A DNA stretch of 32,000 bases. Source: Nitrososphaera viennensis EN76 (GTDB taxonomy: Archaea; Thermoproteota; Nitrososphaeria; Nitrososphaerales; Nitrososphaeraceae). A program made the position numbers and the translations under genes. The stretch lies in contig NZ_CP007536.1 in NCBI RefSeq assembly GCF_000698785.1, forward strand, positions 1,350,001 to 1,382,000, given 5' to 3'. This document shows, in pieces, positions 606 through 17,408 of the stretch (the first letter of the stretch is position 1; every line of letters begins with the position of its first letter). The notes below the pieces were generated by a model. The model had not been told where the DNA came from. It saw only the letters and a list, made by a program, of their open reading frames with translations, and made no database searches.

Positions 606-2039
606 ATGAAGAAATCATCGCTCTATAATCCCAAGCTGACAATCAAGGACTTTGCAGAGCTTGTTTCTTCGCAAAGCATTTCGTGCGAGGAACTTACGGA
701 GATAACGCTGGACAGGATCATGAAGCTGAACCCAAAGCTGAATGGCTTCATAACGATTCTGGAAGACTCGGCCAGGCGTGACGCCAGGGATGCAGATGCC
801 TTGATCAGACAGGGCAAGTACAAGGGGCCGCTCCATGGTATACCCATAAGCCTCAAGGACCTCATCTATATGAAGGGCGCTAGGAGTACGAGCGGTTCCA
901 AGATACTTGCGGATTTTGTGCCGGATTATGATTCAACAGTGGTGAGGAAGCTGAAGGAAGCCGGCGCAATAATAGTCGGGATGAACAACACCCACGAGTT
1001 TGCCTGTGGGATAACCAACATCAACCCGCACTACGGACCTTCAAAGAACCCCTGGGATGACAGCAGGATGTCCGGTGGCTCAAGCGGCGGCTCTGCAGTG
1101 GCAGTCAGCGCCGGCATGTCACTGGCGTCTATAGGCACCGACACTAGCGGTTCAATCAGAGTGCCGTCTTCCCTTTGTGGCGTATTTGGGCTCAAGCCCA
1201 CCTATGGTCGTGTGAGCAAGTACGGGGTAATGCCCCTTGCCCCATCAATAGACCATATCGGTCCAATATGCAGGAGCCCGTGGGACATTGCAGCAGTCAT
1301 GCAGCATATCGCAGGGTACGACAGCCATGACCCCGACAGTGCTAACGCACCTGTTCCCAGCTACACAGATGAAGTGGAAAAGACACAGGGGAAATTCCGC
1401 CTTGGCATCCCCAAGCAATTCTTCTTTGACATCATGGATCCAAAGGTCAAGCATGTATTCGACAGCTTTGTAGAAAGGGCGGAAAGCTACCAGATATCAT
1501 CATCTCGCGTCGACGTTGACGAGACCGACAAGATATACGAGACATGGCGGGCCATAAGGCTGGGCGAATCGGCTACAACCCACAGCGAATGGCTCCGGAC
1601 GCGGCATGACGACTATGGAAAGGATGTCGTAAAGATGCTTGATGATGGCCTCAAGATAACGGCTGTGCATTACATTAGCGCGCACAGGTGGCGCCAAGAA
1701 ATAAGAGAGGCCATCCTCAGAGCCATGAAGCCATATGACGCATTGCTTGTACCCACCACTGCAATTGCAGCTCCCCTGCTGAACCAGAGTACCGTGCACC
1801 TCGATGGCAAGGATATCGAGGTATACCCTGTCCTGAGCAGGCTGACCACGGTATTTGACGTGACTGGCCTCCCTGCGCTCAACGTTCCCGCCGGCTTGGT
1901 AGACAACAGGCTGCCGGTGGGCGTCCAGCTTGTTGGAAGGCCGTTTGACGAAGCGCGACTTCTCCAGATCGCAGAAAGGTACGATCAGCAATACCACGTT
2001 TCAGAAGAGATGGTTCCGGCCCTTAACGTGACAATCTAG
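606..2039 (+). CDS. Amidase-signature family amidase (GatA-like)
   Basis: 477 aa with the amidase signature GGSSGGSAVAVSAGMSLASIGTDTSGSIRVPSSLCGVFGLKPTYGRVS and a typical length. Substrate cannot be assigned from sequence. Confidence 0.9.
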   Translation: MKKSSLYNPKLTIKDFAELVSSQSISCEELTEITLDRIMKLNPKLNGFITILEDSARRDARDADALIRQGKYKGPLHGIPISLKDLIYMKGARSTSGSKILADFVPDYDSTVVRKLKEAGAIIVGMNNTHEFACGITNINPHYGPSKNPWDDSRMSGGSSGGSAVAVSAGMSLASIGTDTSGSIRVPSSLCGVFGLKPTYGRVSKYGVMPLAPSIDHIGPICRSPWDIAAVMQHIAGYDSHDPDSANAPVPSYTDEVEKTQGKFRLGIPKQFFFDIMDPKVKHVFDSFVERAESYQISSSRVDVDETDKIYETWRAIRLGESATTHSEWLRTRHDDYGKDVVKMLDDGLKITAVHYISAHRWRQEIREAILRAMKPYDALLVPTTAIAAPLLNQSTVHLDGKDIEVYPVLSRLTTVFDVTGLPALNVPAGLVDNRLPVGVQLVGRPFDEARLLQIAERYDQQYHVSEEMVPALNVTI

Positions 2040-2327: not shown

Positions 2328-3785
2328 CTAGAGCCTTCCAAGTCCTATCGAGCTTCCCCTAAAGCGGGCAAGCCCGATTATCGCGACGAGCGAGGCTGCA
2401 AGCAACAAGGCCGCCATCACGCCGAATTCAGGCACGACGTTTGTGCCATAAACATCAACCGACGTGCTGCCGTCAGGCACGGTGAACTTGATGTGCGTCT
2501 CGGCGTCCGTAGAGCTGATGGTTACAAACTGCACATCCGTGCTTCCCGCTTTTACCATGGATATGCCGCTTATCATGCTAGTTGGCAGCTTTAGCTCCAC
2601 GTCTCCTCCCTTGTCGAACTTGACATTCACCGACTTGTTGTTAGGGTTTACCGTGACGCTCGTCACCTTGCTTTGCGGAGATATTCCGGTCACGCTATAG
2701 CTCGTGCCGTCGAGCTGAACAGTCACGCCGATGTCGCTTGTTGCCGCGTACCTTTCCGGCACGGCTATTTTCTTGTCTATCACGTCTTGCGTCAGTTGCG
2801 ACAGCCGTGCTTTCACGTCTGCAGGCACCTTGCCGTCTAGGCTGTGGAACGGCGCCAGGTACACGATGCCGTCGCCCGGACCTCCTTTCTCGGCCTCTAT
2901 GCCGGGCTTGAACACCTTGCCTTCAAACTTGTCCTGCAGGACCATCTGCACGGCCTGGTCAAACGCCTTGTCTATGTCAAGCACGAATGACGTCAGCACG
3001 GTGTCCGGCGCCAGCCGGTTCTGGTCTGCAACTGCGCCAAACGCGTAAATCCCCTTTTCCTTGGCAGCCTCTATGACGCCGTGGCCCGACGTGTCTGCCA
3101 CATGGAACAAAAAGTCTGCACCGGCGTTAACTTGCGCTAGGCCTGCTTCTTTGCCCTTGGCAGGGTTGTCCCAGTCGCCCAGATAGGTTCCAATTACCTT
3201 GATGTTAGGATTGACATAGTGTGCGCCTTGCTTGTAACCCTCAAAGAGGTTGATGAGGTTCGGGTACTGATCCCCGCCTACATAGGCTATGGTGCCGGTC
3301 TTGTCCATGGTGGCAGCCAGCGCGCCCAGCAGGAACGTGCCTTCCTGCTGCATCGGGAAGATGGAGGCCACGTTCTGCGAGCTGACAAGTCCGGTGAACA
3401 CCACGAACTTGGTGTTTGGATAGTCCTTGCCCACCTTGACTGCCGGGTCTCCCCACTGGAACCCGTGCGCGATTATCAGGTCGTAGCCGTCATTCGCGTA
3501 CTGCCTTAATGTAGCTTCAATGTCCGGTATTGCAATGTTTTCAGCATAAGCCAGCTTGTACCCGTACTTACTCTCCAACAGTTTGCCTGCACTGTACGCA
3601 GTCGCCCCCCACCCTCCGTCGCTGAAAAGGGCGTCCGTGACGAGCGCTATCTTTAGCTGCTTTCCGCTACTCTGTGCAAAAGCTGTCTGCTGCACGGGAG
3701 CAACCAGCGCCAATGACATCAACACTACAGCCACCGCCGCTGCAATAGCCGTGGTCGATGTCAGTCGTTTGAAACAGGATTTCAT
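2328..3785 (-). CDS. BMP/PnrA-family ABC transporter substrate-binding protein with a C-terminal extra domain and PEFG-CTERM anchor
   Basis: The signal peptide ends ...TAFA/QSS. The type-I PBP core has BMP motifs (KIALVTDALFSDGGWG, GTIAYVGGDQ, FGAVADQN). Residues about 351-448 form a Ser/Thr/Val-rich region. The C-terminus is VVPEFGVMAALLLAASLVAIIGLARFRG, that is PEFG, a TM helix and a basic tail. Confidence 0.9.
   Translation of the reverse strand: MKSCFKRLTSTTAIAAAVAVVLMSLALVAPVQQTAFAQSSGKQLKIALVTDALFSDGGWGATAYSAGKLLESKYGYKLAYAENIAIPDIEATLRQYANDGYDLIIAHGFQWGDPAVKVGKDYPNTKFVVFTGLVSSQNVASIFPMQQEGTFLLGALAATMDKTGTIAYVGGDQYPNLINLFEGYKQGAHYVNPNIKVIGTYLGDWDNPAKGKEAGLAQVNAGADFLFHVADTSGHGVIEAAKEKGIYAFGAVADQNRLAPDTVLTSFVLDIDKAFDQAVQMVLQDKFEGKVFKPGIEAEKGGPGDGIVYLAPFHSLDGKVPADVKARLSQLTQDVIDKKIAVPERYAATSDIGVTVQLDGTSYSVTGISPQSKVTSVTVNPNNKSVNVKFDKGGDVELKLPTSMISGISMVKAGSTDVQFVTISSTDAETHIKFTVPDGSTSVDVYGTNVVPEFGVMAALLLAASLVAIIGLARFRGSSIGLGRL
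2827..3095. repeat. Block A: 269-bp perfect inverted repeat of 11404..11672
   Basis: Base-by-base comparison of 2827..3095 with the reverse complement of 11404..11672 found no mismatch (position x pairs with 14499-x). The first mismatches lie immediately outside both ends. Confidence 0.9.
3319..3664. repeat. Block B: 346-bp perfect inverted repeat of 11801..12146
   Basis: Base-by-base comparison of 3319..3664 with the reverse complement of 11801..12146 found no mismatch (position x pairs with 15465-x). The offset differs from block A by 966 nt, so the order of the blocks is swapped between the two loci. Confidence 0.9.
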
Positions 3786-3988: not shown

Positions 3989-4924
3989 TCACCTTTGTCC
4001 CCTCTTGTACGGGATGGCCAGCGCGGCAGGCGCGCCGGTCTTCTTGTACATTCCGGCAAGGACTGCAATCGGGATCAGGTATGGAAGCATCAGGAGGAAC
4101 TGGAACGGCACCTGCACCCCTGTGGCCTGCAGCCCGAGCTGGAACGAGTCGACCATGCCGAATATGAATGCGCCGAGGGTAATCCAGTACGCCTTCCACC
4201 TCCCGAATATCACCAGCGCAAGTGCAATCCACCCGGCTCCCCCCGTGACGTTTTCAAGGAAATAGCCAGTCTGGACAAGCGAAAAGTAGGCGCCGCCTAC
4301 TCCTGCCAGGGCCCCTCCGATTATCAGTGTCAGGTAGCGTATGCGGTAAACGTTGACGCCGAGGGTGTCTGCCTGTTTTGGGTTCTCCCCGACCGTCCTT
4401 ATCTTGAGGCCCAGCTTTGTCTTGAAGATGAAATAATGAGTCAGGGGCACCAGCAGAAACGCAATGTATACGAGCGGGTCGTGGTTGAACAGAACAGGCC
4501 CGATGCCCGGAAGGTTCGAGAGCCCGGGTATGTCGATTTTTGGCATGAGTTCTACGCTTGGGGCGACTGTGCGGACGCCAAAAGCGAGCCTGTAGAGCAG
4601 CGCGGCAAGCCCTGTTCCAAGCAGCCATATTGCCAAGCCGGCTGCAAGCTGGTTGGTCCGGATGGTGATGCTCATGAACCCCATGAGGATCGCAAGGGCT
4701 GCCGCTCCTACGATTGCCATCAGGATTCCGACGACATAGTTCCCGGTCAGGTACGTGCCCATGAAGCCGGTAAATGCGCCAATCAGCATCATCCCCTCAA
4801 CCCCCAGGTTCAAAACGCCAGAGCGCTCTGCAATCTTTTCACCCAGCGCGGCAAAGAGGATGGGAATGCTCAGACGGATGCCCGATACTATGATGCCGAT
4901 GATAATCGCCTCTTCGCCGGCCAT
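3989..4924 (-). CDS. ABC transporter permease (BMP/nucleoside-type importer)
   Basis: 311 aa and polytopic. Its start overlaps the upstream permease stop by 1 nt (TAATG). Confidence 0.9.
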   Translation of the reverse strand: MAGEEAIIIGIIVSGIRLSIPILFAALGEKIAERSGVLNLGVEGMMLIGAFTGFMGTYLTGNYVVGILMAIVGAAALAILMGFMSITIRTNQLAAGLAIWLLGTGLAALLYRLAFGVRTVAPSVELMPKIDIPGLSNLPGIGPVLFNHDPLVYIAFLLVPLTHYFIFKTKLGLKIRTVGENPKQADTLGVNVYRIRYLTLIIGGALAGVGGAYFSLVQTGYFLENVTGGAGWIALALVIFGRWKAYWITLGAFIFGMVDSFQLGLQATGVQVPFQFLLMLPYLIPIAVLAGMYKKTGAPAALAIPYKRGQR

Positions 4925-5991
4925 TAGCGCGCACCCCCCTTTTTCCTCATGCCAAGCCAGATTACAAATAGCTCGCCGACCAGCACGAACACAAGCACAA
5001 GGGCTTGCAGCGTCATGGAAAACGCGCTGGGCACACCGATGCTCCTGTACATGGTTTCAGAGCCTGTCATCAGGGCAGAGAAAAAGAAGGCCACTATGGC
5101 CACACCCAACGGATGCTGCCTTCCAAGTAGGGCTATTATGACGGCCACAAAGCCATAACCGGGCGAGATCCCCTCTATCAGGATATGCTGCACGCCAGAA
5201 ACGAGCAGGCCGCCGGCAATCCCGGCCAGGCCGCCGCTTATGCCCAGCGTGATGAAAACGCTCTTTGTGATGTTCATCCCGGCATAGCGTGCCGCCTTGA
5301 TGTTTGCGCCGACGCTCCTTATCTCGAATCCTATCTTGGTCTTCCAGAGGTAGTAGACCCCGACAGTCGCAAGGGCGGCTATGAAAATGCCGGCATGAAG
5401 GCGCGTGCCGGGAAAAACTATTGGCATCTGTGACGCGTCGGATATTTCCGGGGAGTACGGGTTAAAGCCGGGCGCCTTGATCGGCCCGTGCAGCAGGAAC
5501 GATATAAAGAGGAGCGCGACAAAGTTCAGGAGCACGGTCGAGATGACCTCGTTCACGCCGAACTTGACCTTGAGGGCGGCCGGGACAAGGGCATAGAGCG
5601 CGCCGAAAATAAAACTCAGGACGATTGCGGCAAGGATAGCAAGGCCAGGGACCGAGCCCAAAAGAGAGATCCCGACAAGGGTGCCTCCGAGGGCGCCCAT
5701 GTACAGCTGGCCCTCCGCCCCGATGTTCCATTGCCTGCACTTGAACGCAACAGAGACGGCCAGCCCGGTCAAGAGAAGCGAAATGGTCTTTAGCATCACA
5801 TCCCCAAACCCGAAGACATTGCCAAAGGCCCCCTGGAACATTATGGCATAAGCCTTTCCGACATCCACGCCGGTGGAGCCCAGTATGATGGCGCCCACGA
5901 CAAAAGCCAGGCTTGCGGACAGGAAAGGAACAAAGAACTTGACGTCTCTGACCTTCTCCCGCGTCTGATAGAATATGCTTGCGACGCTCAT
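4924..5991 (-). CDS. ABC transporter permease (BMP/nucleoside-type importer)
   Basis: 355 aa and polytopic. It has an ATGA start/stop overlap with the ATPase gene at 5988-5991. Confidence 0.9.
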   Translation of the reverse strand: MSVASIFYQTREKVRDVKFFVPFLSASLAFVVGAIILGSTGVDVGKAYAIMFQGAFGNVFGFGDVMLKTISLLLTGLAVSVAFKCRQWNIGAEGQLYMGALGGTLVGISLLGSVPGLAILAAIVLSFIFGALYALVPAALKVKFGVNEVISTVLLNFVALLFISFLLHGPIKAPGFNPYSPEISDASQMPIVFPGTRLHAGIFIAALATVGVYYLWKTKIGFEIRSVGANIKAARYAGMNITKSVFITLGISGGLAGIAGGLLVSGVQHILIEGISPGYGFVAVIIALLGRQHPLGVAIVAFFFSALMTGSETMYRSIGVPSAFSMTLQALVLVFVLVGELFVIWLGMRKKGGAR

Positions 5992-7523
5992 ACCGTCCCC
6001 TCCTTCGGGATTGCCTTTCTGCCCCCCATCAACAGGCCGAGGTAATCCACGTCGGCGTCCTTTCTGTCCACCACGTCCATTATCTTGCCTTCGTAAATCA
6101 CGGCAATGCGGTCGCAGACTGTCAGTATCTCGTCCAGGTCGAGCGAAATCATCAGGACGCCCACGCCGTTGTCGCGCTGTTTCACCAGCTGCTTGTGGAT
6201 GTATTCTGTCGCGCCGATGTCAAGGCCTCTGGTCGGGTTGTGCACGACTAGAACCTTGGGATTTCTGGCAAGCTCCCTTGCCATCAGCACCTTTTGCAAG
6301 TTTCCGCCCGACATCGAGTTTACGGGGACGTTTATCCCTGCCGTCTTTACTTCAAAATCAGACACCACGTTTTGCGCGAACTTTTTCATCTTTTCCTGTT
6401 TCAGAAATATCCTGCCGGAGTATTCGCCTGTATACCACCTGTCCAGGATGAGGTTTTCGGCAATAGAGTACTCCAGAATGAGCCCCGTGTCAAGCCTGTC
6501 CTGCGGAACATAAGCAAGGCCCCATTCCCTGATCTTTCTTGGCGGCAGGTTTGCCACGGACTTTCCGTCCATGATTATTTCGCCGGCCTGCACCTTTCTC
6601 AGTCCTGCTATCACTTCGGCAAGCTCGGTCTGGCCGTTTCCGTCGACGCCGGCTATGCCAAGGATTTCCCCCTTGCGGAGCTCAAACGACAGGTCTTTCA
6701 GGTACATTATGTTCACGTTGTTGAGCGCCGAGATGTTTTTCAGCTGCAGGACAGCGCCCCGCCCGCCGGATGGCCGGGGTTCCATGCTCTCTATCACAGG
6801 GCGGCCGACCATCATCTTGGCAAGCTCGGTCTCGCTGGTTTCAGAGGTCTTGATGGTTCCGACCACCTTGCCGCCACGCAGCACAGTGACCCTCGTGCTT
6901 GCCTCCATGACTTCGTGGAGCTTGTGGGTGATGAATATTATGGAAAGCCCCTGCTTCACCATGGATTCAAGCGTTGCAAACAGCGCTTTTTCTTCCTGTG
7001 GGGTGAGCATACCTGTGGGCTCGTCAAGGATCAGGATGTCGACGTCCCTGTAGAGCGCCTTGATTATTTCGACGCGCTGCTGCTCCCCCACTGCCAGGTT
7101 GCCCACTATGGCCTTTGGGTCTACCTTGAGCCCGTACTTTTCAGACAGCTGGGTTATCTTTTTTTCAGCGCCTGCCAAGTCCAAGAACAGCCCCTTGGAC
7201 TTTAGGCCCACGATGACGTTTTCCGTGACGGTGTGCGGGAGCGTGAGCAGAAAGTGCTGGTGCACCATCGCAATCCCAAGCTCAAGGGCGTCGTTTGGCG
7301 ATTTAATGTCGGTTTTCTTTCCTTTCACGTAAACCTCGCCTGCCTGAGGCTGGTACAGCCCGTAAAGGATGCTCATGAGCGTGGACTTGCCGGCGCCGTT
7401 TTCTCCCAAGAGCGCATGAATCTCGCCTTTTGACAGCTCGAAATCGACGCTGTCGTTTGCCACCACGTCCCCGAACCTGATGGTGATCCCCTTCATCTGC
7501 ACGATAGGCTCGCCAGCAGTCAC
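5988..7523 (-). CDS. ABC transporter ATP-binding protein with two fused ATPase domains
   Basis: 511 aa with Walker A GENGAGKST, signature LAVGEQQRVEI and Walker B ILILDEPT. The second domain has GVDGNGQTEL, MSGGNLQKV and VLVVHNPTRGLD. The listed start is GTG at 7523; the ATG at 7496 (MKGITIRFG) is an alternative. Confidence 0.9.
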   Translation of the reverse strand: MTAGEPIVQMKGITIRFGDVVANDSVDFELSKGEIHALLGENGAGKSTLMSILYGLYQPQAGEVYVKGKKTDIKSPNDALELGIAMVHQHFLLTLPHTVTENVIVGLKSKGLFLDLAGAEKKITQLSEKYGLKVDPKAIVGNLAVGEQQRVEIIKALYRDVDILILDEPTGMLTPQEEKALFATLESMVKQGLSIIFITHKLHEVMEASTRVTVLRGGKVVGTIKTSETSETELAKMMVGRPVIESMEPRPSGGRGAVLQLKNISALNNVNIMYLKDLSFELRKGEILGIAGVDGNGQTELAEVIAGLRKVQAGEIIMDGKSVANLPPRKIREWGLAYVPQDRLDTGLILEYSIAENLILDRWYTGEYSGRIFLKQEKMKKFAQNVVSDFEVKTAGINVPVNSMSGGNLQKVLMARELARNPKVLVVHNPTRGLDIGATEYIHKQLVKQRDNGVGVLMISLDLDEILTVCDRIAVIYEGKIMDVVDRKDADVDYLGLLMGGRKAIPKEGTV

Positions 7524-7912: not shown

Positions 7913-9556
7913 ATGTCAGGCCACGACATATTCCACATAGCCATACGACAGAACTTTTACCGTGACTCCATGCAGCTGCTAAAGATTTCTGATAGCACGA
8001 GGCGCGCTAGCAGGGGAGTCGTGGAAGCCTCTGTGATAATGGCCACTGCCACCAACAAGGAGATACTCATGCGCCGGGGCTTCCGGCCGTCTGCGGTCAA
8101 CGAGGCCCAAGAGTCGGACATCATTATAGCCATCAGGGCCGGCGACGAGGAGGCAGTAAGGCTGGCGCTTTTGGAGGCAGACAGGCTGCTTGAATCCCCA
8201 CAGGGCGCTTCAAGGCAGGACGAGCACAAGGCCGGCGACCTGGACTCGGCCCTGAGATCCATGCCGGACGCTAACCTTGCGCTCGTATCTATCCCCGGCG
8301 ACCATGTCAGAGAGGTCTCGCTGATGCTTGTCGAGCGTGGAGTGCACCAGCAGATATTCAGCGACCACGTCCCAGTTGAGGACGAGCTAGAGATCAAGAC
8401 GCAGGCTGCAGGCAAGGGAGTGCTGGTACTTGGGCCCGGCGCCGGGACTTCTATAATCAACGGCAAGGGAATCGGGTTTTCAAACGCCGTCAGGATCGGT
8501 CCTGTAGGCATAGTGGCGGCGGCAGGTACGGGGCTGCAAGAAGTCTCCACCCTGCTAGACCATTCGGGCATCGGCGTAAAATATGGCCTTGGCGTTGGAG
8601 GCAACGACCCCAAGGACAAGATAGGCGGAATAATGATGATGCAGTGCATCAAGATCCTGGAAAGCTATGCCGACATCAAAGTCGTCGGCATCGTTTCAAA
8701 GCCGCCGTCCCCGTCGGTGCAGGAAAAAATTGAAGACTATATCGCCAGGGACGGAAAGAAAAAGTACGTGCTGGCGTTCATAGGCGGAGCCAAGAGCGAA
8801 AAGAAAAGCGACAGGATAACCAGGGTCAACACCCTGGCGTCGGCGGTCCTTGCAACTGCCAGGCAGCTTGGAAAGGAGCAGATCGCGCAGGCAGTCGCGC
8901 AGACCTACATCCCGCCGGAAAAATTGCTGGCCCTCTTGGAAGGCGAATGGACCAAGCTGGCCCAAGGACAAAAGCGCATCAGGGCGCTCTACACCGGAGG
9001 GACTTTTACCTACGAGGCAGAGGTGATTCTCGGCTCCATACTACAAGGCGAACCCATCTATTCCAATTCTCCCATCATGGACATAAAGCAGCTTGACGAT
9101 TCGTTCAAGAGCCAGGAGACCTCGATTGTTGACCTCGGGGAGGAGGAATTCACAAGGGGCAGGCCTCACCCCATGATCGACCCGACCATAAGGCGGTTCA
9201 GGATAGCAGAGGAGGCGGCCGACCCGGACGTCGCCGTGCTCCTGATGGATTTTGTACTCGGGTACGGCTCCCACCCGGACCCTGTCGGCGCGGTCCTGAA
9301 CGAGATAAGCGATGCCAAGCGCGCCGCGGAAAAAGCAGAGAGGCACCTGTGCGTGATAGCCCATGTCTGCGGCACTTCAGGCGACCTCCAGGGATACGCC
9401 CAGAGCATCGAAAAGCTGACGCGTGCAGGCTGCGTGGTTTTGCCTACAAACGCCATGGCCGCGGTGGCTTCTGCCGTAGTTGCCCGGCGGGGCAAGGTGG
9501 ATATTGATAGAATCTATGCGCAGTACCTGACTGTGGACGGAGGCTCAATGAAGTGA
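7913..9556 (+). CDS. fdrA: FdrA-family protein (succinyl-CoA-synthetase-alpha-like; E. coli FdrA/YahF homolog)
   Basis: 547 aa. The N-terminus (IAIRQNFYRDSMQLLKIS...VIMATATNKEILMRRGF) parallels the FdrA N-terminus as I recall it. It has CoA-ligase-like Gly-rich segments and sits next to DUF2877, carbamate kinase and DUF1116 genes. Confidence 0.85.
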   Translation: MSGHDIFHIAIRQNFYRDSMQLLKISDSTRRASRGVVEASVIMATATNKEILMRRGFRPSAVNEAQESDIIIAIRAGDEEAVRLALLEADRLLESPQGASRQDEHKAGDLDSALRSMPDANLALVSIPGDHVREVSLMLVERGVHQQIFSDHVPVEDELEIKTQAAGKGVLVLGPGAGTSIINGKGIGFSNAVRIGPVGIVAAAGTGLQEVSTLLDHSGIGVKYGLGVGGNDPKDKIGGIMMMQCIKILESYADIKVVGIVSKPPSPSVQEKIEDYIARDGKKKYVLAFIGGAKSEKKSDRITRVNTLASAVLATARQLGKEQIAQAVAQTYIPPEKLLALLEGEWTKLAQGQKRIRALYTGGTFTYEAEVILGSILQGEPIYSNSPIMDIKQLDDSFKSQETSIVDLGEEEFTRGRPHPMIDPTIRRFRIAEEAADPDVAVLLMDFVLGYGSHPDPVGAVLNEISDAKRAAEKAERHLCVIAHVCGTSGDLQGYAQSIEKLTRAGCVVLPTNAMAAVASAVVARRGKVDIDRIYAQYLTVDGGSMK

Positions 9557-9562
9557 TGACGC

Positions 9563-9742
9563 ATGGGTAGCGAGGAGCGCGCAAGGAAACTTTTGGACTC
9601 GGAGCTCAAGGTCATCAACTTGGGCCTAGACGTTTTTTACAGTTCGCTAGAGATGCAGAACGTCAAGGTGATAAATGTGGACTGGAAGCCCGCCCCCAAG
9701 CTTGACGAGGAGTCTGAAGACATCTTGGACAAGATACTGTGA
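9563..9742 (+). CDS. Small 59-aa ORF resembling the N-terminal extension of long-form DUF1116 (YahG-type) proteins
   Basis: ATG at 9563, TGA at 9740-9742, sequence MGSEERARKLLDSELKVINLGLDVFYSSLEMQNVKVINVDWKPAPKLDEESEDILDKIL. It is below the ORF-track length cutoff. It fills the fdrA-DUF2877 gap exactly, 6 nt after the fdrA stop and 6 nt before the next start. The VINxGlxxFxxxLxxQxVxVxxxDWxP pattern matches my recollection of the YahG N-terminus. Confidence 0.5.
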   Translation: MGSEERARKLLDSELKVINLGLDVFYSSLEMQNVKVINVDWKPAPKLDEESEDILDKIL

Positions 9743-9748
9743 GGCACT

Positions 9749-10729
9749 TTGAAAGTCGAACCCCTGCCAAGTGTAGAGCCGGCCGTTTTTCAATGCAGTT
9801 CCATTGGCAGCGTCCACGGCACGCTGGCGCAAAGCCAAGGCAGGATAGGCAGGGTGATAAACGTCTTTGACACCACTATCAACATCCGCACAGACGGTGA
9901 CGAGCTTTTGGTTCTCACGCTGGGCAAGACGAAGTCGCCCATAAACGTGAATGTTGTCGGTGCCGGGCCGGCGCACAGTACGGGGTTTGCAGGCTTGGCA
10001 AGGCAGGGCAGCGACGCCGTGAGGACAAAGTGCGCCGGAAGGACAATGATCCAGGCCGGCAGGGTGCTAGTATCAATTGATAGGCAGGATATCTTTCAAA
10101 ATTCGCTGGATGAACCGGCGGCAGAGGCGCTGCGCACATTTGCGAGTGCAAGCGGCAGGGTGTCGTCGGCGCTTGCAGGCGAGGCGGAAAAAGGGAGGAC
10201 CGGCTGCCTGCTCAGGCCGGACATCACCACAGCGGGCCTGCTCAACGCGTTTTCTGGCCGGCTTTTGTCTGGCTGGTGCGACACGCAGGACGGCATGGCA
10301 GAGGCGCTTGCGGGATTGTGTGGGAGGGGGCCGGGGTTTACCCCTGCCGGCGACGACTTTATCGCAGGGTACCTTGCGATGTTCAACTGGCTTTGCAGCG
10401 CCCTGGAACTTGGACCCCCCATAATCCCCGGCGGCGAATTTTTGCGCCTGACCACCTGGACGAGCTTTAAACTGATGGAGTACAGCGCAAGAGACCTGCT
10501 TGACGAGCAGGCGCAGTCGATGCTCAATTCCGTGGCAGGAGGCAGGGCGGATGATTACGTCCGGTGCATCGAGGTCATTGGCAAGCGGGGCCACACCTCC
10601 GGCATCGATTTTGCCACCGGCGCCACGTTTGGCCTGTACACCGTCGCGGACAGCGTGTGCGGGACGAGAAGCCTCGGCGACATTTCAGGCCGCCTAGGCA
10701 TAACCTCATCAGGCCCGCAATTATCATAA
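9749..10729 (+). CDS. DUF2877-family protein (E. coli YlbF/YahE homolog)
   Basis: 326 aa with the GRGPGFTPAGDDFIAGYL motif typical of the family, in cluster context. The listed start is TTG. Confidence 0.7.
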   Translation: MKVEPLPSVEPAVFQCSSIGSVHGTLAQSQGRIGRVINVFDTTINIRTDGDELLVLTLGKTKSPINVNVVGAGPAHSTGFAGLARQGSDAVRTKCAGRTMIQAGRVLVSIDRQDIFQNSLDEPAAEALRTFASASGRVSSALAGEAEKGRTGCLLRPDITTAGLLNAFSGRLLSGWCDTQDGMAEALAGLCGRGPGFTPAGDDFIAGYLAMFNWLCSALELGPPIIPGGEFLRLTTWTSFKLMEYSARDLLDEQAQSMLNSVAGGRADDYVRCIEVIGKRGHTSGIDFATGATFGLYTVADSVCGTRSLGDISGRLGITSSGPQLS

Positions 10730-10809: not shown

Positions 10810-12720
10810 TTGCAACAAATCCAGACCGTTGTCATTGCACTCGGCGGAAACGCGCTGTTAAAGCGCGACGACAAGGGAACTTTTGCGGAGCAGTTTGCCA
10901 ACGTCCAGGCGGCGGCAAAGGGAATAGCCGACCTTTTGCAGAAAGGGTACAGGGTGGTGCTCACCCACGGAAACGGCCCCCAGGTCGGGGCGACCGTGCT
11001 GAGGCACGAAGCGGCCAAGAACACGGTTCCCCCGTTCCCGCTTTACGCCTGCAATGCGGAAACGCAGGGGATGATAGGCTACATGGTCGTGCAGGGTCTC
11101 CAGAACGAGCTTGACGCAAGAGGCATCAAAAAATCAGTCGTTTCGCTGGTCACGAGGGTCGTGGTCAATCAGGCGGACCCTGCCTTCAAGAACCCGACCA
11201 AACCGGTCGGCCCATATTTCGAGAGGCATCAGTACCCGAACCTGCTCAACATTTTTGAGGGCTACAAGCAGGGAGCCAGGTACGTCAACCCGGACATCAG
11301 GGTGCTTGCGGCGTACCTCGGCGACTGGGACAGCCCCCTCAAGGGGAGGGAAGTTGCCATGGTGCAGATAGGCTCCGGGGCGGATGTTTTGCTTCACACC
11401 GCCGACACGTCGGGCCACGGCGTCATAGAGGCTGCCAAGGAAAAGGGGATTTACGCGTTTGGCGCAGTTGCAGACCAGAACCGGCTGGCGCCGGACACCG
11501 TGCTGACGTCATTCGTGCTTGACATAGACAAGGCGTTTGACCAGGCCGTGCAGATGGTCCTGCAGGACAAGTTTGAAGGCAAGGTGTTCAAGCCCGGCAT
11601 AGAGGCCGAGAAAGGAGGTCCGGGCGACGGCATCGTGTACCTGGCGCCGTTCCACAGCCTAGACGGCAAGGTCTCTGTGAAGGTAAAAAAGAAGCTGGAA
11701 GAGCTGACCCGGCGCATAATAAGCAAAGAGATAACCGTCCCTGAAAAGTACGAGGCGACCACCGACACTATAGCAGGGCAGGTGCCTTCTGCGCCGGCTA
11801 GAAAGCAGCTAAAGATAGCGCTCGTCACGGACGCCCTTTTCAGCGACGGAGGGTGGGGGGCGACTGCGTACAGTGCAGGCAAACTGTTGGAGAGTAAGTA
11901 CGGGTACAAGCTGGCTTATGCTGAAAACATTGCAATACCGGACATTGAAGCTACATTAAGGCAGTACGCGAATGACGGCTACGACCTGATAATCGCGCAC
12001 GGGTTCCAGTGGGGAGACCCGGCAGTCAAGGTGGGCAAGGACTATCCAAACACCAAGTTCGTGGTGTTCACCGGACTTGTCAGCTCGCAGAACGTGGCCT
12101 CCATCTTCCCGATGCAGCAGGAAGGCACGTTCCTGCTGGGCGCGCTTGCCGCAATGATGAGCAAGACGGGCATCATCGGGTACGTGGGGGGAGACCAGAT
12201 TGACAGGTTCATTGCCGACGACGTAAAATTCACCTTCAAGTACCAGGGGGACAGCAGGTACAGGAGGGTGGTGCCTTCCCCGAAACCCGTCGCAATACTG
12301 GAGCACCAGGCGATCCGCTTGCTGGCCGACGCGGGCTTTGTGGTGGTCGCCTGCGGCGGCGGTGGCATCCCCGTTATTGAAGTAGCAGGCGGCTGGAGTG
12401 GGGTTGACGCGGTCATAGACAAAGACCTTGCGGGCGAGAAGATGGCAAGGCAGATCGGGGCTGACAAGTTTGTCATCCTGACAGACGTGGACGGCCTGTA
12501 CATGGACTACAAGAAACCCACGCAGAGGCTGGTCAAGGAAGTCAGGGTCGGCCAGCCGGGAGCGGTCAACATTTCGCAGCTGGAGGAAGGGAGCATGGGG
12601 CCCAAGGTCGGCGCCTGCCTAGAGTTTGTGAGAAATGGCGGGAGGGAGGCTGTCATTGCTAGCCTTGATAGGCTCGTTGACGCGGTTGAGGGGCTGTCGG
12701 GAACCCACTTTTTCCCGTAG
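10810..12720 (+). CDS. Carbamate kinase with an in-frame inserted, circularly permuted BMP-type solute-binding domain
   Basis: Residues 1-141 (VVIALGGNALL, VLTHGNGPQVG, DPAFKNPTKPVGPYF) and 464-636 (RRVVPSPKP, VVACGGGGIPV, VDAVIDKDLAGEKMA, ILTDVDG, GSMGPKVGA) together make a colinear 314-aa carbamate kinase. Residues 142-463 are BMP-family sequence. The reading frame is uninterrupted. Confidence 0.85.
   Translation: MQQIQTVVIALGGNALLKRDDKGTFAEQFANVQAAAKGIADLLQKGYRVVLTHGNGPQVGATVLRHEAAKNTVPPFPLYACNAETQGMIGYMVVQGLQNELDARGIKKSVVSLVTRVVVNQADPAFKNPTKPVGPYFERHQYPNLLNIFEGYKQGARYVNPDIRVLAAYLGDWDSPLKGREVAMVQIGSGADVLLHTADTSGHGVIEAAKEKGIYAFGAVADQNRLAPDTVLTSFVLDIDKAFDQAVQMVLQDKFEGKVFKPGIEAEKGGPGDGIVYLAPFHSLDGKVSVKVKKKLEELTRRIISKEITVPEKYEATTDTIAGQVPSAPARKQLKIALVTDALFSDGGWGATAYSAGKLLESKYGYKLAYAENIAIPDIEATLRQYANDGYDLIIAHGFQWGDPAVKVGKDYPNTKFVVFTGLVSSQNVASIFPMQQEGTFLLGALAAMMSKTGIIGYVGGDQIDRFIADDVKFTFKYQGDSRYRRVVPSPKPVAILEHQAIRLLADAGFVVVACGGGGIPVIEVAGGWSGVDAVIDKDLAGEKMARQIGADKFVILTDVDGLYMDYKKPTQRLVKEVRVGQPGAVNISQLEEGSMGPKVGACLEFVRNGGREAVIASLDRLVDAVEGLSGTHFFP
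11404..11672. repeat. Block A copy (inverted repeat of 2827..3095)
   Basis: 269/269 identical to the reverse complement of 2827..3095. It encodes HGVIEAAKEKGIYAFGAVADQNRLAPDTVLTS...APFHSLDGKV. Confidence 0.9.
11801..12146. repeat. Block B copy (inverted repeat of 3319..3664)
   Basis: 346/346 identical to the reverse complement of 3319..3664. It encodes KQLKIALVTDALFSDGGWG...MQQEGTFLLGALA. Confidence 0.9.
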
Positions 12721-12825: not shown

Positions 12826-14088
12826 ATGGCAGAAGACATAAAGGTCAAAATCGAATCTGCAAACAAGGACGCAATACAAAAGGTTCTTTCCTCAAGACCC
12901 TTTCTTGTAGACGTCAGGCCCGCAATAGAAGTCCTGCCAGACATGAAAAAGAGGTCGATATTCCATGCAGGCCCGCCGGTGGACTGGAAGAGGATGTGCG
13001 GGCCCATGAAGGGGGCCGTGGTAGCCACCGTCATCTTTGAAAAGTGGGCCAACAGCTGGGACGAGGCTGCCAAACTGGTGGAGAGCGGAGAGGTCGAGCT
13101 TTCGCCCAACCACGACCACGACGCGGTGGGGCCCATGGCCGGCGTCATATCCCCCTCGATGCCGGTGTTTGTTGTCAGGAACGAAAAGCACGGCAACACC
13201 AACTACGGGAGGATAGTAGAGAACAAGGTTCAGTTCGGAGCCTACGACGCGCAGGCGATAGAATCGCTAGAGTTCTGGTCCACCGTCCTTGCGCCGGCAA
13301 TACGCAAGGCGCTTGAAAGGATCAAGCGGGCAGGCGACAAGGGCATAGACCTGAAATCCATCATGGCCAAGGCCCTGTACATGGGCGACGAGCTGCACAA
13401 CCGCCCGGTGGCAGGCACGGCACTCTTTGCAGTGGCCATAATGCCGCACATGGTGGAGACTGTGGAGAAGGAGCAGCTGATAAAGGTCATAGACTATTTT
13501 GCCGCAAACGAGATCTTCTTTTTGTGCCTGGCGATGGCCGCCTGCAAGGCCACCATGAACGCTGCTTCAAACATTGAACACAGCACCCTTGTAACGGCGA
13601 TGGCCCGCAACGGCACCGACTTTGGGATAAAGGTGAGCGGCCTTGGAAACCAGTGGTTCACCGGGCCGGCCGGGATGATACGCGGCATGTACTTTCCGGG
13701 ATTTGGCGACAAGGACGCCAACCCGGACATGGGAGACAGCGCGATAACAGAGACGGCAGGTGTCGGGGGCTTTGCGCTTGCCGACTCGCCGGCGATACTT
13801 TCGCTTGTCGGCGGGACCGCGGAGGACGCCCTAAAGTACACCAAGCAGATGCGCGAGATTACCATGGCATCAAACGACACCTTCCTCGTCCCCATATTTG
13901 ACTTCCAGGGCACGGGCACGGGAATAGACATCCGAAAGGTCGTGAAAACGGGCATACTGCCGGTGATCGACACCGCAATAGCCCACAGGGAGCCGGGGAT
14001 AGGCATGATAGGCGCCGGCCTTGTCAACCCGCCGATGGAGGCTTTCAAGGGTGCGCTTCGTGAATTCGCGCGCAAGTACAAGCTCTAG
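12826..14088 (+). CDS. DUF1116-family protein (E. coli YlbE/YahG homolog)
   Basis: 420 aa. HAGPPVDWKRMCGPMKGAV, SPNHDHDAVGPMAGV, NPDMGDSAITETAGVGGFA and NTAIAHREPGIGMIGAG closely parallel YlbE/YahG as I recall them. Confidence 0.85.
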   Translation: MAEDIKVKIESANKDAIQKVLSSRPFLVDVRPAIEVLPDMKKRSIFHAGPPVDWKRMCGPMKGAVVATVIFEKWANSWDEAAKLVESGEVELSPNHDHDAVGPMAGVISPSMPVFVVRNEKHGNTNYGRIVENKVQFGAYDAQAIESLEFWSTVLAPAIRKALERIKRAGDKGIDLKSIMAKALYMGDELHNRPVAGTALFAVAIMPHMVETVEKEQLIKVIDYFAANEIFFLCLAMAACKATMNAASNIEHSTLVTAMARNGTDFGIKVSGLGNQWFTGPAGMIRGMYFPGFGDKDANPDMGDSAITETAGVGGFALADSPAILSLVGGTAEDALKYTKQMREITMASNDTFLVPIFDFQGTGTGIDIRKVVKTGILPVIDTAIAHREPGIGMIGAGLVNPPMEAFKGALREFARKYKL

Positions 14089-14091
14089 GGG

Positions 14092-15210
14092 CTAGAACCT
14101 CTGAATGATGTTAAAGAAGGTGTCACGCTGCGCCGGCTCGCGCTTTATCTCGCGCACCATGCTTGCAAGCTCTTGCAAGGACGTCCCGCTTGCCTTTCCT
14201 GCCGCCTTGAATATCTCCTCTGAAAAGGCCGTTCCCACCATGTCGTTTCCGCCGTACGAAAGCGCGACCTGCGATATCTTTTTGCCAAGCGCCACCCAGT
14301 ACACCGAGATGTTCTTTAGCGTGTTTCCAAGCAAGAGCCTTGACACTGCTATCACGCGCAGGTCGTAAGGCGACGAGCTCTCGGATTTTATCATCTCCTT
14401 TTGCTCAAGTTCCGTGTTTTCAAGGCTGAACTTGAGCGGGATAAACGTCGTAAAGCCGCCGGTCTTTTTGTGCAGCTCGCGTATCTTGATGACGTGGTCA
14501 ACAATGTGCTCTGGTTTTTCAATGTGGCCAAAGAGCATCGTGCAGTTGCTGCGGATGCCAAGCTCGTGCGCCTGCCTTGCAGTGTCGAGCCACTCTTCGC
14601 CGGAGCACTTGCCTATCACTATTTTCTTGCGGGTGTCAGGATGGAATATCTCCGCCCCGCCTCCCGGGAGCGCGTCAAGGCCGGCAGCCTTTAATCGCAA
14701 GAGTACTTCTTTTACAGAGTTGCGTGTCAGGCGCGCGATAAAGAACACCTCGGCTGGGGTGAGCGCCTTTATAGTCACCTTTGGATGCTCGGACTTTATG
14801 GCGCGCATCATGTTTTCGTAATATTCAAGCCCCAGCTTGGGGTGAAAGCCGCCGACGATGTGGAGTTCGGTTGCTCCCATCTGCTCTATAGCTATCTTGG
14901 CCCTTGCGACAACCTGCTCGGTAGAAAGCGTGTAGGCGTCCTCCTCGTTGCCCTTGCGATAGAATGCGCACAATGGACAGCTGGCGGCGCACACGTTCGT
15001 GTAGTTGAGATAATAAGAAGCGACAAAGGTCACAGTGTTGCCGCACAGGTCGCGGCGCAGTCTGTCTGCAGCCGCGCCGAGCAGAAAGAGGTTTTCCTCG
15101 TTCATCAATTGAACGCCGTCCTCGTAGGACAGCTCCTCCTCTCCGGCAAGCGCCTTTTCAAGCGCCGGCGTCCCGCCGACCTTGCCAAAGGCGTCAGCTA
15201 TTGACTGCAA
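14092..15210 (-). CDS. Radical SAM enzyme of the MqnC/MqnE (futalosine pathway) / CofH-like family
   Basis: 372 aa with NYTNVCAASCPLCAFY (CxxxCxxC), a GGxHP motif and a C-terminal MqnC/CofH-type region. MqnC versus MqnE cannot be decided by eye. Confidence 0.8.
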   Translation of the reverse strand: MQSIADAFGKVGGTPALEKALAGEEELSYEDGVQLMNEENLFLLGAAADRLRRDLCGNTVTFVASYYLNYTNVCAASCPLCAFYRKGNEEDAYTLSTEQVVARAKIAIEQMGATELHIVGGFHPKLGLEYYENMMRAIKSEHPKVTIKALTPAEVFFIARLTRNSVKEVLLRLKAAGLDALPGGGAEIFHPDTRKKIVIGKCSGEEWLDTARQAHELGIRSNCTMLFGHIEKPEHIVDHVIKIRELHKKTGGFTTFIPLKFSLENTELEQKEMIKSESSSPYDLRVIAVSRLLLGNTLKNISVYWVALGKKISQVALSYGGNDMVGTAFSEEIFKAAGKASGTSLQELASMVREIKREPAQRDTFFNIIQRF

Positions 15211-15299
15211 CAGTGTGTAACTTGCCGTTAGGCCATTATAAATTTAGGCTCCCTCTCCAAATCATTAAATAGCATAAAGAGGCCAAAACAGTCAGACAT

Positions 15300-16427: not shown

Positions 16428-16439
16428 TTCAAAAAAAAG

Positions 16440-17390: not shown

Positions 17391-17408
17391 CGCATTTCCT
17401 CCTTCTTC

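Follow-up and report, generated by a model that had tools for sequence, protein, structure and literature searches.

Generally, carbamate kinases (CKs) are proteins of about 300–330 residues, about 35 of which form the protruding subdomain (PSD). This mobile element spans Lys126–Val159 in the M. penetrans enzyme, consists of β5, helix D, and the β6–β7 hairpin in the P. furiosus enzyme, and has to move from an open to a closed position for catalysis (PMC3474736, PMC3182869). AllK (YbcF), from the allFGHK cluster of E. coli, is a CK partnered with allF, allG, and allH (PMC11326118, PMC9843812). Other enzymes sharing this kinase fold, namely aspartokinase (with ACT domains), arginine-inhibited NAGK, and UMP kinase, are under small-molecule control; these use C-terminal ACT domains, N-terminal helices, or oligomer interfaces, and not an insert in the lid.

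Protein engineers make switches by domain insertion combined with circular permutation, and the maltose-binding protein/β-lactamase switches are engineered domain-insertion switches of this type. Natural regulators containing sensors with a binding-protein fold include LacI/GalR, AmiC, the natriuretic-peptide receptor guanylate cyclases, and the ionotropic glutamate receptors, while Med (PDB 2hqb) is a BMP-family regulator of ComK. In such regulators a Venus-flytrap domain was recruited from transport to control another activity. They are terminal fusions or separate subunits, except that in ionotropic glutamate receptors the channel is inserted into the binding domain. To our knowledge, no regulator has a permuted binding domain within the catalytic lid of an enzyme.

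Here, we describe such an arrangement in NVIE_015970 of the soil ammonia oxidiser Nitrososphaera viennensis EN76, encoded within a 32,000-nucleotide stretch of its genome (the window). A literature search for natural permuted binding-protein insertions returned engineered systems only, and no paper discussing the combination of a CK with a binding protein was found in the searchable literature. The claim of the initial annotation that no natural enzyme of this kind has been described holds for the searchable literature, but the domain combination is already noted in the genome annotation.

Overall architecture

NVIE_015970 is a protein of 636 residues (ORF 10810..12720, forward strand) and is 100% identical to AIC15849.1, WP_075054755.1, and A0A060HGY7. 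Pfam recognized AA_kinase in two parts (E = 3.8e-27) and Bmp (PF02608) over two stretches (184.4 bits against a cut-off of 24.1; E = 3.3e-54). The donor of the insert is the gene for the BMP/PnrA-family solute-binding protein NVIE_015900 (hereafter PBP), a secreted, PEFG-anchored protein that belongs to the adjacent ABC importer. A blastp comparison matched residues 136–319 of the fusion to PBP residues 168–351 (78% identity, E = 6e-102) and residues 332–468 to PBP residues 42–178 (94% identity, E = 7e-86). The native lobe order of BMP/PnrA proteins is not kept, since PBP residues 174–351 precede residues 42–173; these two matches bear out the permuted order given in the initial annotation. 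At the DNA level, the permutation is seen as two inverted repeats in swapped order (2732–3274 with 11225–11767, 83%; 3267–3664 with 11801–12198, 96%), and the fusion junctions lie at nucleotides 11233 and 12198/12199. The coordinates of all features are listed in Table 1.

Table 1. Features of the fusion gene and its surroundings, in window coordinates.
Feature	Position	Strand	Remarks
AtzE-like amidase-signature amidohydrolase, flanking the transporter	606..2039	+	Pfam Amidase, E 6e-118
NVIE_015900, BMP/PnrA-family solute-binding protein (donor)	2328..3785	-	Pfam Bmp, E 6.3e-56
ABC importer	3989..7523	-	Permeases 3989-4924 and 4924-5991, double ATPase 5988-7523; Pfam BPD_transp_2 twice, ABC_tran twice
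allF	7913-9556	+	Pfam Ligase_CoA/CoA_binding
59-aa ORF	9563-9745	+	Conserved in all loci
allH	9749-10729	+	Pfam AllH
Carbamate kinase, N-terminal part (aa 1-141)	10810..11232	+	Aligns to 1e19 residues 4-141
Insert segment 1 (aa 142-319)	11233..11766	+	PBP 174-351 (blastp)
Gene-conversion tract 1, 269 nt	11404..11672	+	Exact reverse complement of 2827-3095 in the PBP gene
Linker TIAGQVPSAPAR, 12 aa (aa 320-331)	11767..11802	+	Without PBP match
Gene-conversion tract 2, 346 nt	11801..12146	+	Exact reverse complement of 3319-3664 in the PBP gene
Insert segment 2 (aa 332-463)	11803..12198	+	PBP 42-173 (blastp)
Carbamate kinase, C-terminal part (aa 464-636 plus stop)	12199..12720	+	Aligns to 1e19 residues 153-314
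allG, directly downstream of the kinase	12826..14088	+	Pfam AllG, E 3.1e-80

The first insert segment contains the return strands and the bulk of the C-lobe. The second contains the N-lobe plus the initial helix and strand of the C-lobe, its last residues being GYVGGDQ. The linker between them connects the old C-terminus of the PBP core with its old N-terminus; its sequence and length both vary among orthologues, and its residues 320–327 have pLDDT values below 50. PBP residues 1–41 (signal peptide) and 352–485 (C-terminal stalk and PEFG anchor) are missing from the insert, and the host protein has no signal sequence. The signal and anchor have therefore been removed as originally described, but the lost C-terminal region is a β-rich stalk and is not markedly Ser/Thr-rich. 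Without signal peptide, stalk, or anchor, the insert should be cytoplasmic. It thus differs from the BMP/PnrA proteins of transporters in being permuted, unanchored, and located within an enzyme.

The AF2 model of NVIE_015970 has a pLDDT of 83 and a pTM of only 0.67. The secondary-structure elements of the insert are those of BMP/PnrA solute-binding proteins, and solved BMP proteins superpose partially on the fusion model (TM 0.35–0.40). The exit junction (residues 463–469) and the PSD strands are of low confidence, and downstream of the insert the model lacks PSD helix D.

Kinase moiety and insertion site

After removal of residues 142–463, the spliced kinase aligned with P. furiosus CK (PDB 1e19) from end to end, residues 6–141 with 4–141 and residues 476–636 with 153–314. 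The resulting 314-residue protein shares 55–60% identity with ordinary archaeal CKs of 317 residues over 97–100% of the length. The insertion is therefore clean, with no kinase sequence lost, in agreement with the initial description of residues 1–141 and 464–636 as a complete kinase. Among the catalytic and phosphate-binding residues, which include the GGN and HGNGPQ motifs, the PSD lysine, the GGGG and DKD motifs, and a C-terminal lysine, Gly12, Asn14, Gly54, Asn55, Arg485, Gly516–519, Asp537, Lys538, Asp539, and Lys599 are invariant in 110 CKs, and Lys131 is nearly so. The NF009007 carbamate kinase subfamily model gave 301.7 bits (cut-off 266), and the TIGR00746 arcC equivalog gave 345.3 bits (cut-off 358.25), its match being split by the insert. 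In Foldseek comparisons, the kinase part of the predicted model superposed across the insert on all solved CKs with TM values of 0.84–0.95, as the fusion's proposer had asked of a structure prediction; the solved CKs were those of P. furiosus (1e19), E. faecalis (1b7b/2we4/2we5), Giardia (3kzf), and M. penetrans (4axs). Judged from its sequence, the kinase part is a complete carbamate kinase with conserved catalytic residues, with the same fold and mobile PSD as AllK and the solved CKs.

The N-terminal kinase part ends with PSD strand β5 (KPVGPYFERHQ), which bears the catalytic Lys131, equivalent to Lys128 of E. faecalis and Lys126 of M. penetrans CK. The C-terminal part contains the remaining PSD (IDRFIADDV and the hairpin FTFKY/RRVVP), the GGGG loop, the DKD motif, and Lys599. 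The insert starts 10 residues after Lys131, between β5 and helix D, which places it within the mobile PSD, as first proposed. Hence, where known CKs have a PSD of about 35 residues, that of NVIE_015970 holds a folded domain of 322 residues.

Distribution and authenticity

At least 65 full-length orthologues (66–81% identity) were found in Nitrososphaera-like archaea. Nine loci compared directly, including contigs of 1.7 and 3.1 Mb, have identical junctions (GPYFE..Q|YPNL and GYVGGD.|[IL]D.F) and conserved synteny, as would be expected if the architecture predicted from one genome were real. In a search of 1.84 billion representatives, the CK–PBP architecture was found among full-length proteins in only one 50%-identity cluster (P0063); the only other hits with it, P0241 and P0253, belong to that family as well but are incomplete. 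The remaining long hits are tandem BMP repeats or CKs fused to AllH, OTCase, or DcuC. A scan of GTDB genomes was dominated by the generic pattern THGNGPQV; it gave ordinary kinases and only one further fusion (L011), and is a poor guide to taxonomic spread.

A chimeric assembly, which the initial annotation asked to exclude, or a recent pseudogene could be suspected, as the insert and a gene 8 kb away have long exact repeats in common, and some short metagenome contigs hold chimera-like hybrids (P0068–P0074). This explanation is effectively refuted. The ORF has a 100% match in the source genome, a closed isolate genome of 2.53 Mb, and dozens of independent assemblies, long contigs included, show identical junctions and an intact frame. 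Synonymous sites are saturated while the protein is conserved. Transcripts of the gene are also present, at low, basal abundance, when cultures grow on ammonia (log2 RPKM 4.8 and 4.1).

Gene conversion between insert and transporter gene

Two long tracts of the insert are exact copies of the PBP gene (Table 1), and identity flanking tract 1 is only 56–80%. Large exact tracts are present in most genomes compared. Sequence comparison thus indicates that patches of the insert are repeatedly overwritten from the transporter gene by gene conversion, a feature new to the present analysis. In a comparison covering 57 of the 66 fusions, inserts could be told consistently from PBPs at only about 8 positions. 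By contrast with the converted patches, the junction-proximal first third of segment 1 (residues 142–201) was converted in no compared genome, according to window identity profiles and trees, and it contains the insert-specific residues Leu146, Ala183, Phe188, Ile194, and Leu195.

Independent repeated insertions were also considered, as each insert resembles the PBP of its own genome. They were rejected because the junctions are identical everywhere. They are further disfavoured by the tree of residues 142–201, which parts PBPs from inserts, with a bootstrap value for the exact split of only 0.42.

Predicted ligand pocket and selection

The closest solved structures to NVIE_015900 are Lbp (7x0r), whose ligand is guanosine, and AtzT (6pi5), whose ligands are guanine and 2-hydroxyatrazine. 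The pocket of AtzT is formed by Tyr45, Ser97, Phe98, Thr139, Glu165, Asn169, Trp194, Asn218, and Asn220, of which Thr139 and Asn169 are second-shell residues (PMC6834077). These map in the fusion to Trp349, Gly398, Phe399, Thr440, Asn144, Ile148, Trp173, Asp199, and Ser201, respectively. The predicted ligand-contact positions are the same as in the cluster B proteins AtzT, Lbp, and Brucella 3s99. In the full alignment of 66 fusions, the nine predicted pocket positions (seven ligand-contacting and two second-shell) are invariant, apart from a Thr/Ser alternation at 440. The transporter PBPs share the predicted contact residues, with one exception: Phe replaces the equivalent of Trp173 in 14 of the 32. 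Second-shell position 148 is Ile in the fusions and most transporter PBPs, and Leu in the PBP of N. viennensis itself.

Asn144, Trp173, Asp199, and Ser201 lie in the region that was never converted. Moreover, the insert of locus L006, which is without conversion tracts (69% nucleotide identity to its own PBP, pS 0.82), keeps all nine pocket residues. Between orthologous inserts, pN is 0.13–0.16 against a saturated pS of 0.75–0.92, indicating that the insert is under purifying selection. The invariance of the predicted pocket and its match to the transporter PBP lend real support to the view that the insert is a sensor for whatever compound the neighbouring ABC system takes up. A purine base is an improbable ligand, because the hydrogen-bonding residues are Gly, Asn, Asp, and Ser in place of Ser, Glu, Asn, and Asn in AtzT.

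Genomic context

The genes upstream of the kinase, allF and allH, and allG downstream encode oxamate carbamoyltransferase subunits; AllF matched the NCBIfam FdrA model with 373.7 bits, under its cut-off of 433. In the window and eight related loci, the fusion gene follows allF and is flanked by allH and allG, and no separate kinase gene was found in the loci compared where allK would be expected. The order is allF, small ORF, allH, allK, allG, which differs from the E. coli order allFGHK. Locus L010 has the same order with an insert-free kinase whose PSD loop is longer. The synteny of the ABC importer is conserved across the loci compared. Six other loci retain the transporter PBP gene, and in three of them (L003, L004, and L007) the amidohydrolase is a conserved neighbour; its best NCBIfam match is the AtzE family (below cut-off). 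NVIE_015970 is best explained as AllK, the catabolic carbamate kinase encoded by an oxalurate/oxamate-carbamoyltransferase cluster.

Possible function of the insert

The best-supported reading, to which we give about an even chance, is that NVIE_015970 is a ligand-gated kinase. In an ancestor of the Nitrososphaera-like ammonia oxidisers, a permuted copy of the cluster's own BMP-family PBP entered the kinase lid downstream of strand β5, with its catalytic lysine, and ahead of helix D. The cytoplasmic insert may bind the small, planar, nitrogen-rich compound taken up by the ABC importer, for which oxalurate or a related ureide is a candidate. Closure of the insert, or ligand-induced ordering of the junction, could then shift the lid and switch kinase activity. 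That the insert binds a ligand, which ligand this would be, and whether and in which direction it regulates the kinase are inferences; feed-forward activation by the ligand would be the likely direction, the choice of activation over inhibition being purely conjectural. Carbamoyl phosphate would thereby be converted to ATP, NH3, and CO2 only with substrate present, and the ATP-consuming reverse reaction would otherwise be blocked. In vivo, 1e19, the solved CK nearest to NVIE_015970, is described as acting as a carbamoyl-phosphate synthetase, so ungated reversal would be a realistic cost.

Engineered PBP switches and biosensors follow a common principle, domain insertion and permutation at a conformationally responsive site (PMC6335823, PMC4974565). 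Switch-type placement is present here as well: the insert sits in the mobile PSD, and its termini lie in a predicted ligand-responsive loop, as the PBP is cut in its C-lobe cleft loop two residues before Asn176, the predicted ligand-contacting equivalent of AtzT Glu165. However, in the classic engineered switches a reporter or enzyme is permuted into the binding protein, whereas in NVIE_015970 a permuted binding protein is placed into the enzyme. The likeness to engineered insertion switches drawn in the initial annotation therefore holds for the principle, but the roles of enzyme and binding protein are reversed. Its proposal of ligand gating is favoured in part, by the PSD site, the removal of the secretion parts, the shared junctions, and the conserved predicted pocket. 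Engineered switches are also man-made, with ligand binding coupled to an output, whereas NVIE_015970 is natural and its switching putative. Recurrent gene conversion could partly preserve PBP-like sequence without selection for binding, and this speaks against the gated-kinase reading, as do the modest pTM and the low confidence of the exit junction and PSD strands.

Solute-binding proteins close around their ligands, in keeping with a sensing role; a substrate-holding role near the carbamoyltransferase is also conceivable. The insert might accordingly hold the imported substrate (e.g., oxalurate) beside AllFGH in a metabolon, the kinase clearing labile carbamoyl phosphate, so that it would be a scaffold and not a switch. 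The position of the gene between allH and allG at every locus and the conserved predicted pocket would suit such a role, as would natural AllH–CK fusions elsewhere (P0258, P0288), which suggest physical association of kinase and transcarbamoylase. In addition, OXTCase is readily reversible, and the carbamoyl phosphate that it releases is used by CK to form ATP (PMC11326118). Yet a binding-protein fold encloses its ligand and normally frees it only at the transporter, no release mechanism being apparent; insertion into the lid, as opposed to a terminal fusion, is unnecessary for scaffolding, and the related cluster L010 works with an ordinary kinase. We consider substrate capture unlikely. A ligand-independent structural role, in which the insert is an exapted bulky lid, an oligomerisation domain, or a tolerated passenger resembling a PBP mainly through gene conversion, appears distinctly unlikely. 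The large exact tracts in most genomes and the few positions that separate inserts from PBPs agree with it, and the PSD evidently tolerates insertions, as its tip varies in length among CKs and the loop of L010 is longer. Nevertheless, the four never-converted pocket residues are invariant in 66 fusions, the L006 insert retains the whole pocket despite synonymous saturation against its own PBP, and purifying selection on the entire insert is strong.

It is very improbable that the kinase moiety is no longer an enzyme and that the protein serves as a cytoplasmic binding or regulatory protein on a kinase-fold scaffold. The arcC equivalog score just under its cut-off and the missing prediction of helix D downstream of the insert point in that direction, but all catalytic and phosphate-binding residues are invariant, the NF009007 model is passed, the kinase fold superposes well, and the clusters have no separate kinase where allK is expected.

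Returning to the ligand-gated kinase, the fuller proposal is of a natural enzyme whose sensor specificity is kept matched to the transporter via recurrent gene conversion, so that organic-nitrogen uptake switches on catabolism; we hold this to be somewhat short of an even bet. If true, it would be a natural, clade-wide switch in which the inserted domain is the binding protein; it would offer a ready-made scaffold and a reference case of how coupling was solved in evolution. The evolutionary route is visible, from donor gene through permutation and insertion to mosaic concerted evolution with the transporter gene, and tandem BMP–BMP proteins are plausible intermediates. Ureides such as oxalurate have recently been raised, from metagenomes, as a source of ammonia and ATP for soil ammonia oxidisers (PMC12625717). 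The present arrangement bears on that question, which can be addressed in the cultured N. viennensis, and the ligand of the sensor would name the substrate of the pathway. If the proposal holds, an archaeon that oxidises ammonia would, by taking up organic nitrogen, directly turn on a catabolic route that yields ATP and ammonia.

Architecture of the fusion protein

The 636-residue product of NVIE_015970 is 100% identical to AIC15849.1 / WP_075054755.1 / UniProt A0A060HGY7, encoded on a 2.53 Mb contig of Nitrososphaera viennensis. Its database names differ: NCBI lists a BMP-family substrate-binding protein, while UniRef and JGI list a carbamate kinase (CK). Pfam detects both the amino-acid-kinase and the Bmp (PF02608) domain, each in two pieces. 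In blastp, residues 136–319 match residues 168–351 of NVIE_015900, the solute-binding protein (PBP) of the adjacent ABC importer (78% identity, E 6e-102), and residues 332–468 match its residues 42–178 (94% identity, E 7e-86). The two segments thus lie in swapped order, and at the DNA level the two genes share two inverted repeats in the same swapped arrangement. The insert lacks the PBP signal peptide, C-terminal stalk and PEFG anchor. Without residues 142–463, a 314-residue kinase remains that aligns end to end with the P. furiosus CK and is 55–60% identical to ordinary 317-residue archaeal kinases; no kinase sequence was lost at the insertion. The initial annotation, a complete 314-residue kinase carrying an in-frame, permuted BMP insert freed of secretion signal and anchor, with junctions at 11233 and 12198, was correct in every descriptive element.

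In an AlphaFold2 model (mean pLDDT 83, pTM 0.67), both domains are folded, and confidence is low in the linker (320–327), the exit junction (463–469) and a short loop (269–272). The kinase part of the model superimposes on every solved CK with TM values of 0.84–0.95, across the 322-residue gap. Superposition of solved BMP proteins is only partial, as expected for a permutation.

Features of the N. viennensis locus
Feature	Position	Strand	Remarks
Amidase-signature enzyme	606–2039	+	Closest to AtzE (1-carboxybiuret hydrolase) family; NCBIfam score 374.6, below the cut-off of 461
PBP gene, NVIE_015900	2328–3785	-	
Exact inverted repeat, 269 nt	11404–11672 / 2827–3095		Fusion gene / PBP gene
Exact inverted repeat, 346 nt	11801–12146 / 3319–3664		Fusion gene / PBP gene
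Conserved small ORF	9563–9745	+	59 aa, MGSEERARKLLDSELKVINLGLD..., between allF and allH
Fusion gene, NVIE_015970	10810–12720	+	
Linker between PBP-like segments			12 aa, TIAGQVPSAPAR
Two divergent CofH-like radical-SAM genes	14092–15210, 15300–16427	-, +	
Region after the cluster	14092–18866		CofH-like pair, GNAT acetyltransferase, UbiD-family decarboxylase
Short ORF	19352–19987	-	Contains part of an IS240-type DDE transposase domain; probably the remnant of an insertion sequence

Conservation and distribution

At least 65 full-length two-domain proteins (66–81% identity, one per 90%-identity cluster) were found in Nitrososphaera and Nitrososphaeraceae genomes and soil metagenomes. Eight related loci were compared, two of them on contigs of 1.7 Mb and 3.1 Mb. 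All share the entry junction ...GPYFE[RK][HS]Q/YPNL... and the exit junction ...GYVGGD[QKE]/[IL]D.F... (slash, junction). The PBP segments are equal in length except for one missing codon in locus L008, and the linker varies in sequence and, by a few residues, in length. The gene order is also kept, with the PBP, two permeases and the ATPase on one strand (preceded by the amidase in three loci) and allF, the small ORF, allH, the fusion and allG on the other. Overlong kinases with the same junctions, which the initial annotation had proposed to seek in relatives, therefore exist; given these relatives and their identical junctions, the fusion is real and an assembly artefact is effectively excluded. 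Hybrid proteins are encoded on metagenome contigs of 2–11 kb (P0068–P0074): in some, a signal-peptide-bearing PBP runs directly into the C-terminal half of the kinase, and in P0073 the N-terminal half leads through the insert into a full PBP C-lobe. These are most likely assembly mis-joins across conversion tracts; real recombinants are possible.

Among 1.84 billion representative proteins, only one cluster at 50% identity has the kinase–Bmp architecture; two fragments (P0241, P0253) belong to the same family. The remaining long matches spanning the permuted insert are secreted proteins with two or three tandem BMP domains. Among four of these (P0272, P0275, P0283 and P0381), some have nearly identical repeats; such proteins are natural duplication intermediates of a kind that can yield circular permutants by excision. 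Other CK fusions (P0258, P0288, P0290, P0264, P0376) join CK to AllH, to ornithine/aspartate carbamoyltransferase or to a DcuC-type C4-dicarboxylate carrier.

The distant locus L010 (JGI 3300000858 contig, GC 35%) has the order allF, small ORF, allH, kinase, allG, with an ordinary kinase of 323 residues. Since this order is the same without the insert, it fits an insertion within an already existing gene cluster. The protruding subdomain (PSD) loop of this kinase is longer and Ser-rich (EKEMIDSSSLSDSSNNTLQLV), which shows that the insertion site tolerates variation in length.

Gene conversion with the transporter gene

The exact tracts shared by the two N. viennensis genes lie 8 kb apart, and flanking identity is only 56–80%. 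They sit elsewhere in other genomes (282 nt in L004, 185 nt in L005, 158 nt in L003); none was found between the L006 insert and its own PBP gene. For five of six genomes, a tree of fusion residues 202–315 pairs the insert with the genome's own PBP. In the tree of residues 142–201, the PBPs group together, apart from the inserts, with a bootstrap of only 0.42 for the exact split. The picture overall is of a single ancient insertion and, after it, repeated gene conversion in patches. This concerted evolution is a new finding of the present analysis. The inverted repeats could also mediate inversion of the intervening transporter–allF–allH segment.

The few residues that consistently separate inserts from PBPs are L146, A183, F188, I194 and L195, plus 370–372. 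The first five lie beside the entry junction, in the stretch (142–201) that escapes conversion; this suggests an interface with the kinase that would be damaged by conversion.

Lid and binding pocket

The PSD is the mobile lid of CK, formed by strand β5, helix D and hairpin β6–β7 (Lys126–Val159 in M. penetrans); catalysis needs it to open and close over carbamoyl phosphate, and its first lysine touches the substrate (PMC3474736, PMC3182869). This lysine corresponds to K131 of the fusion, and the insert starts at residue 142, between β5 and helix D.

Ligand-contact positions were mapped from AtzT, the closest well-described structure (PMC6834077). The PBP is cut between Q173 and Y174; this point lies in a loop of the C-lobe at the binding cleft and precedes N176 by two residues. 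N176 corresponds to AtzT Glu165, a hydrogen-bonding partner of the ligand (PMC6834077). With the cut at this point, both links to the kinase lid emerge from the binding domain next to the pocket. The nine mapped positions are W349, G398, F399, T440, N144, I148, W173, D199 and S201; seven correspond to ligand contacts and two to second-shell residues. Across 66 fusions none of them varies, apart from a T/S alternation at T440, and four fall inside the never-homogenised region. The ligand-contacting residues equal those of the transporter PBPs, bar the W173 position (Phe in 14 of 32 PBPs); second-shell position 148 is Ile in fusions and most PBPs, and Leu in the N. viennensis PBP. The L006 insert keeps the nine positions although it has reached synonymous saturation against its own PBP (pS 0.82). 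The hydrogen-bonding residues are unlike those of AtzT, which makes a purine base an improbable ligand; the two stacking aromatics point to a planar molecule.

Gene neighborhood and expression

The small ORF, probably NVIE_015950, holds the same position in all related loci, including L010 (57–72 residues), and matched no Pfam family; it may serve the carbamoyltransferase as an accessory or a fourth subunit. Besides this locus, L003, L004 and L007 have the AtzE-like amidase next to the transporter; its place is taken by isochorismatase (BiuH-like) and PurE-like genes in L006 and by a creatininase-family gene in L008. The CofH pair and UbiD are also adjacent in L001 and L008.

Ammonia-grown cultures contain low levels of the fusion transcript (log2 RPKM 4.8 and 4.1); no proteomic evidence for NVIE_015970 was found in the published data searched. 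Nearly all of NVIE_015880–NVIE_015980 is low under these conditions (log2 RPKM about 3.3–6.4; NVIE_015890 below 1), and the kinase and allG differ slightly but significantly between the two conditions of a copper-limitation experiment (PMC7785015, Dataset S1). Low transcription is what one would expect of a catabolic cluster that is not induced.

Proposed function

Oxamate carbamoyltransferase, made up of AllF, AllG and AllH, turns oxalurate and phosphate into oxamate and carbamoyl phosphate; from the latter AllK makes ATP and frees ammonia (PMC11326118, PMC9843812). In ammonia-oxidising archaea, N. viennensis among them, a 2025 metagenomic study reported allFGHK beside a bmpA-type ABC transporter and proposed purine-breakdown products as ammonia sources; the fusion is unmentioned there (PMC12625717).

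Several readings of the fusion can be weighed. Loss of kinase activity is one rival; the phosphate-binding and phosphotransfer residues are invariant in an alignment of 110 kinases. A ligand-independent structural role is another; orthologous inserts show pN of 0.13–0.16 against pS of 0.75–0.92, i.e., strong purifying selection, and the pocket is conserved as described. Substrate capture or a metabolon is plausible, natural AllH–kinase fusions existing elsewhere. The best-supported reading, to which we give about an even chance, is a ligand-responsive kinase.

In such a kinase, the cytoplasmic binding domain would recognize the compound imported by the adjacent transporter and, attached at its cleft loop, would determine where the lid lies or how ordered it is. 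Carbamate arises spontaneously from ammonia and bicarbonate, and the closest solved homologue is described as a carbamoyl-phosphate synthetase; since an ungated kinase could work in reverse and spend ATP, feed-forward activation would be sensible for this organism.

Each of the two domains comes from a well-known family, and sensors with the binding-protein fold are widely used by regulators. The initial annotation knew of no natural enzyme of this kind. The literature search found no paper on a permuted binding protein that sits in the catalytic lid of an enzyme and is kept matched to its transporter paralogue through gene conversion, although the bare domain combination had already been flagged in genome annotation. 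Interest in the fusion is high, as the organism is in culture and the decisive experiments are simple.
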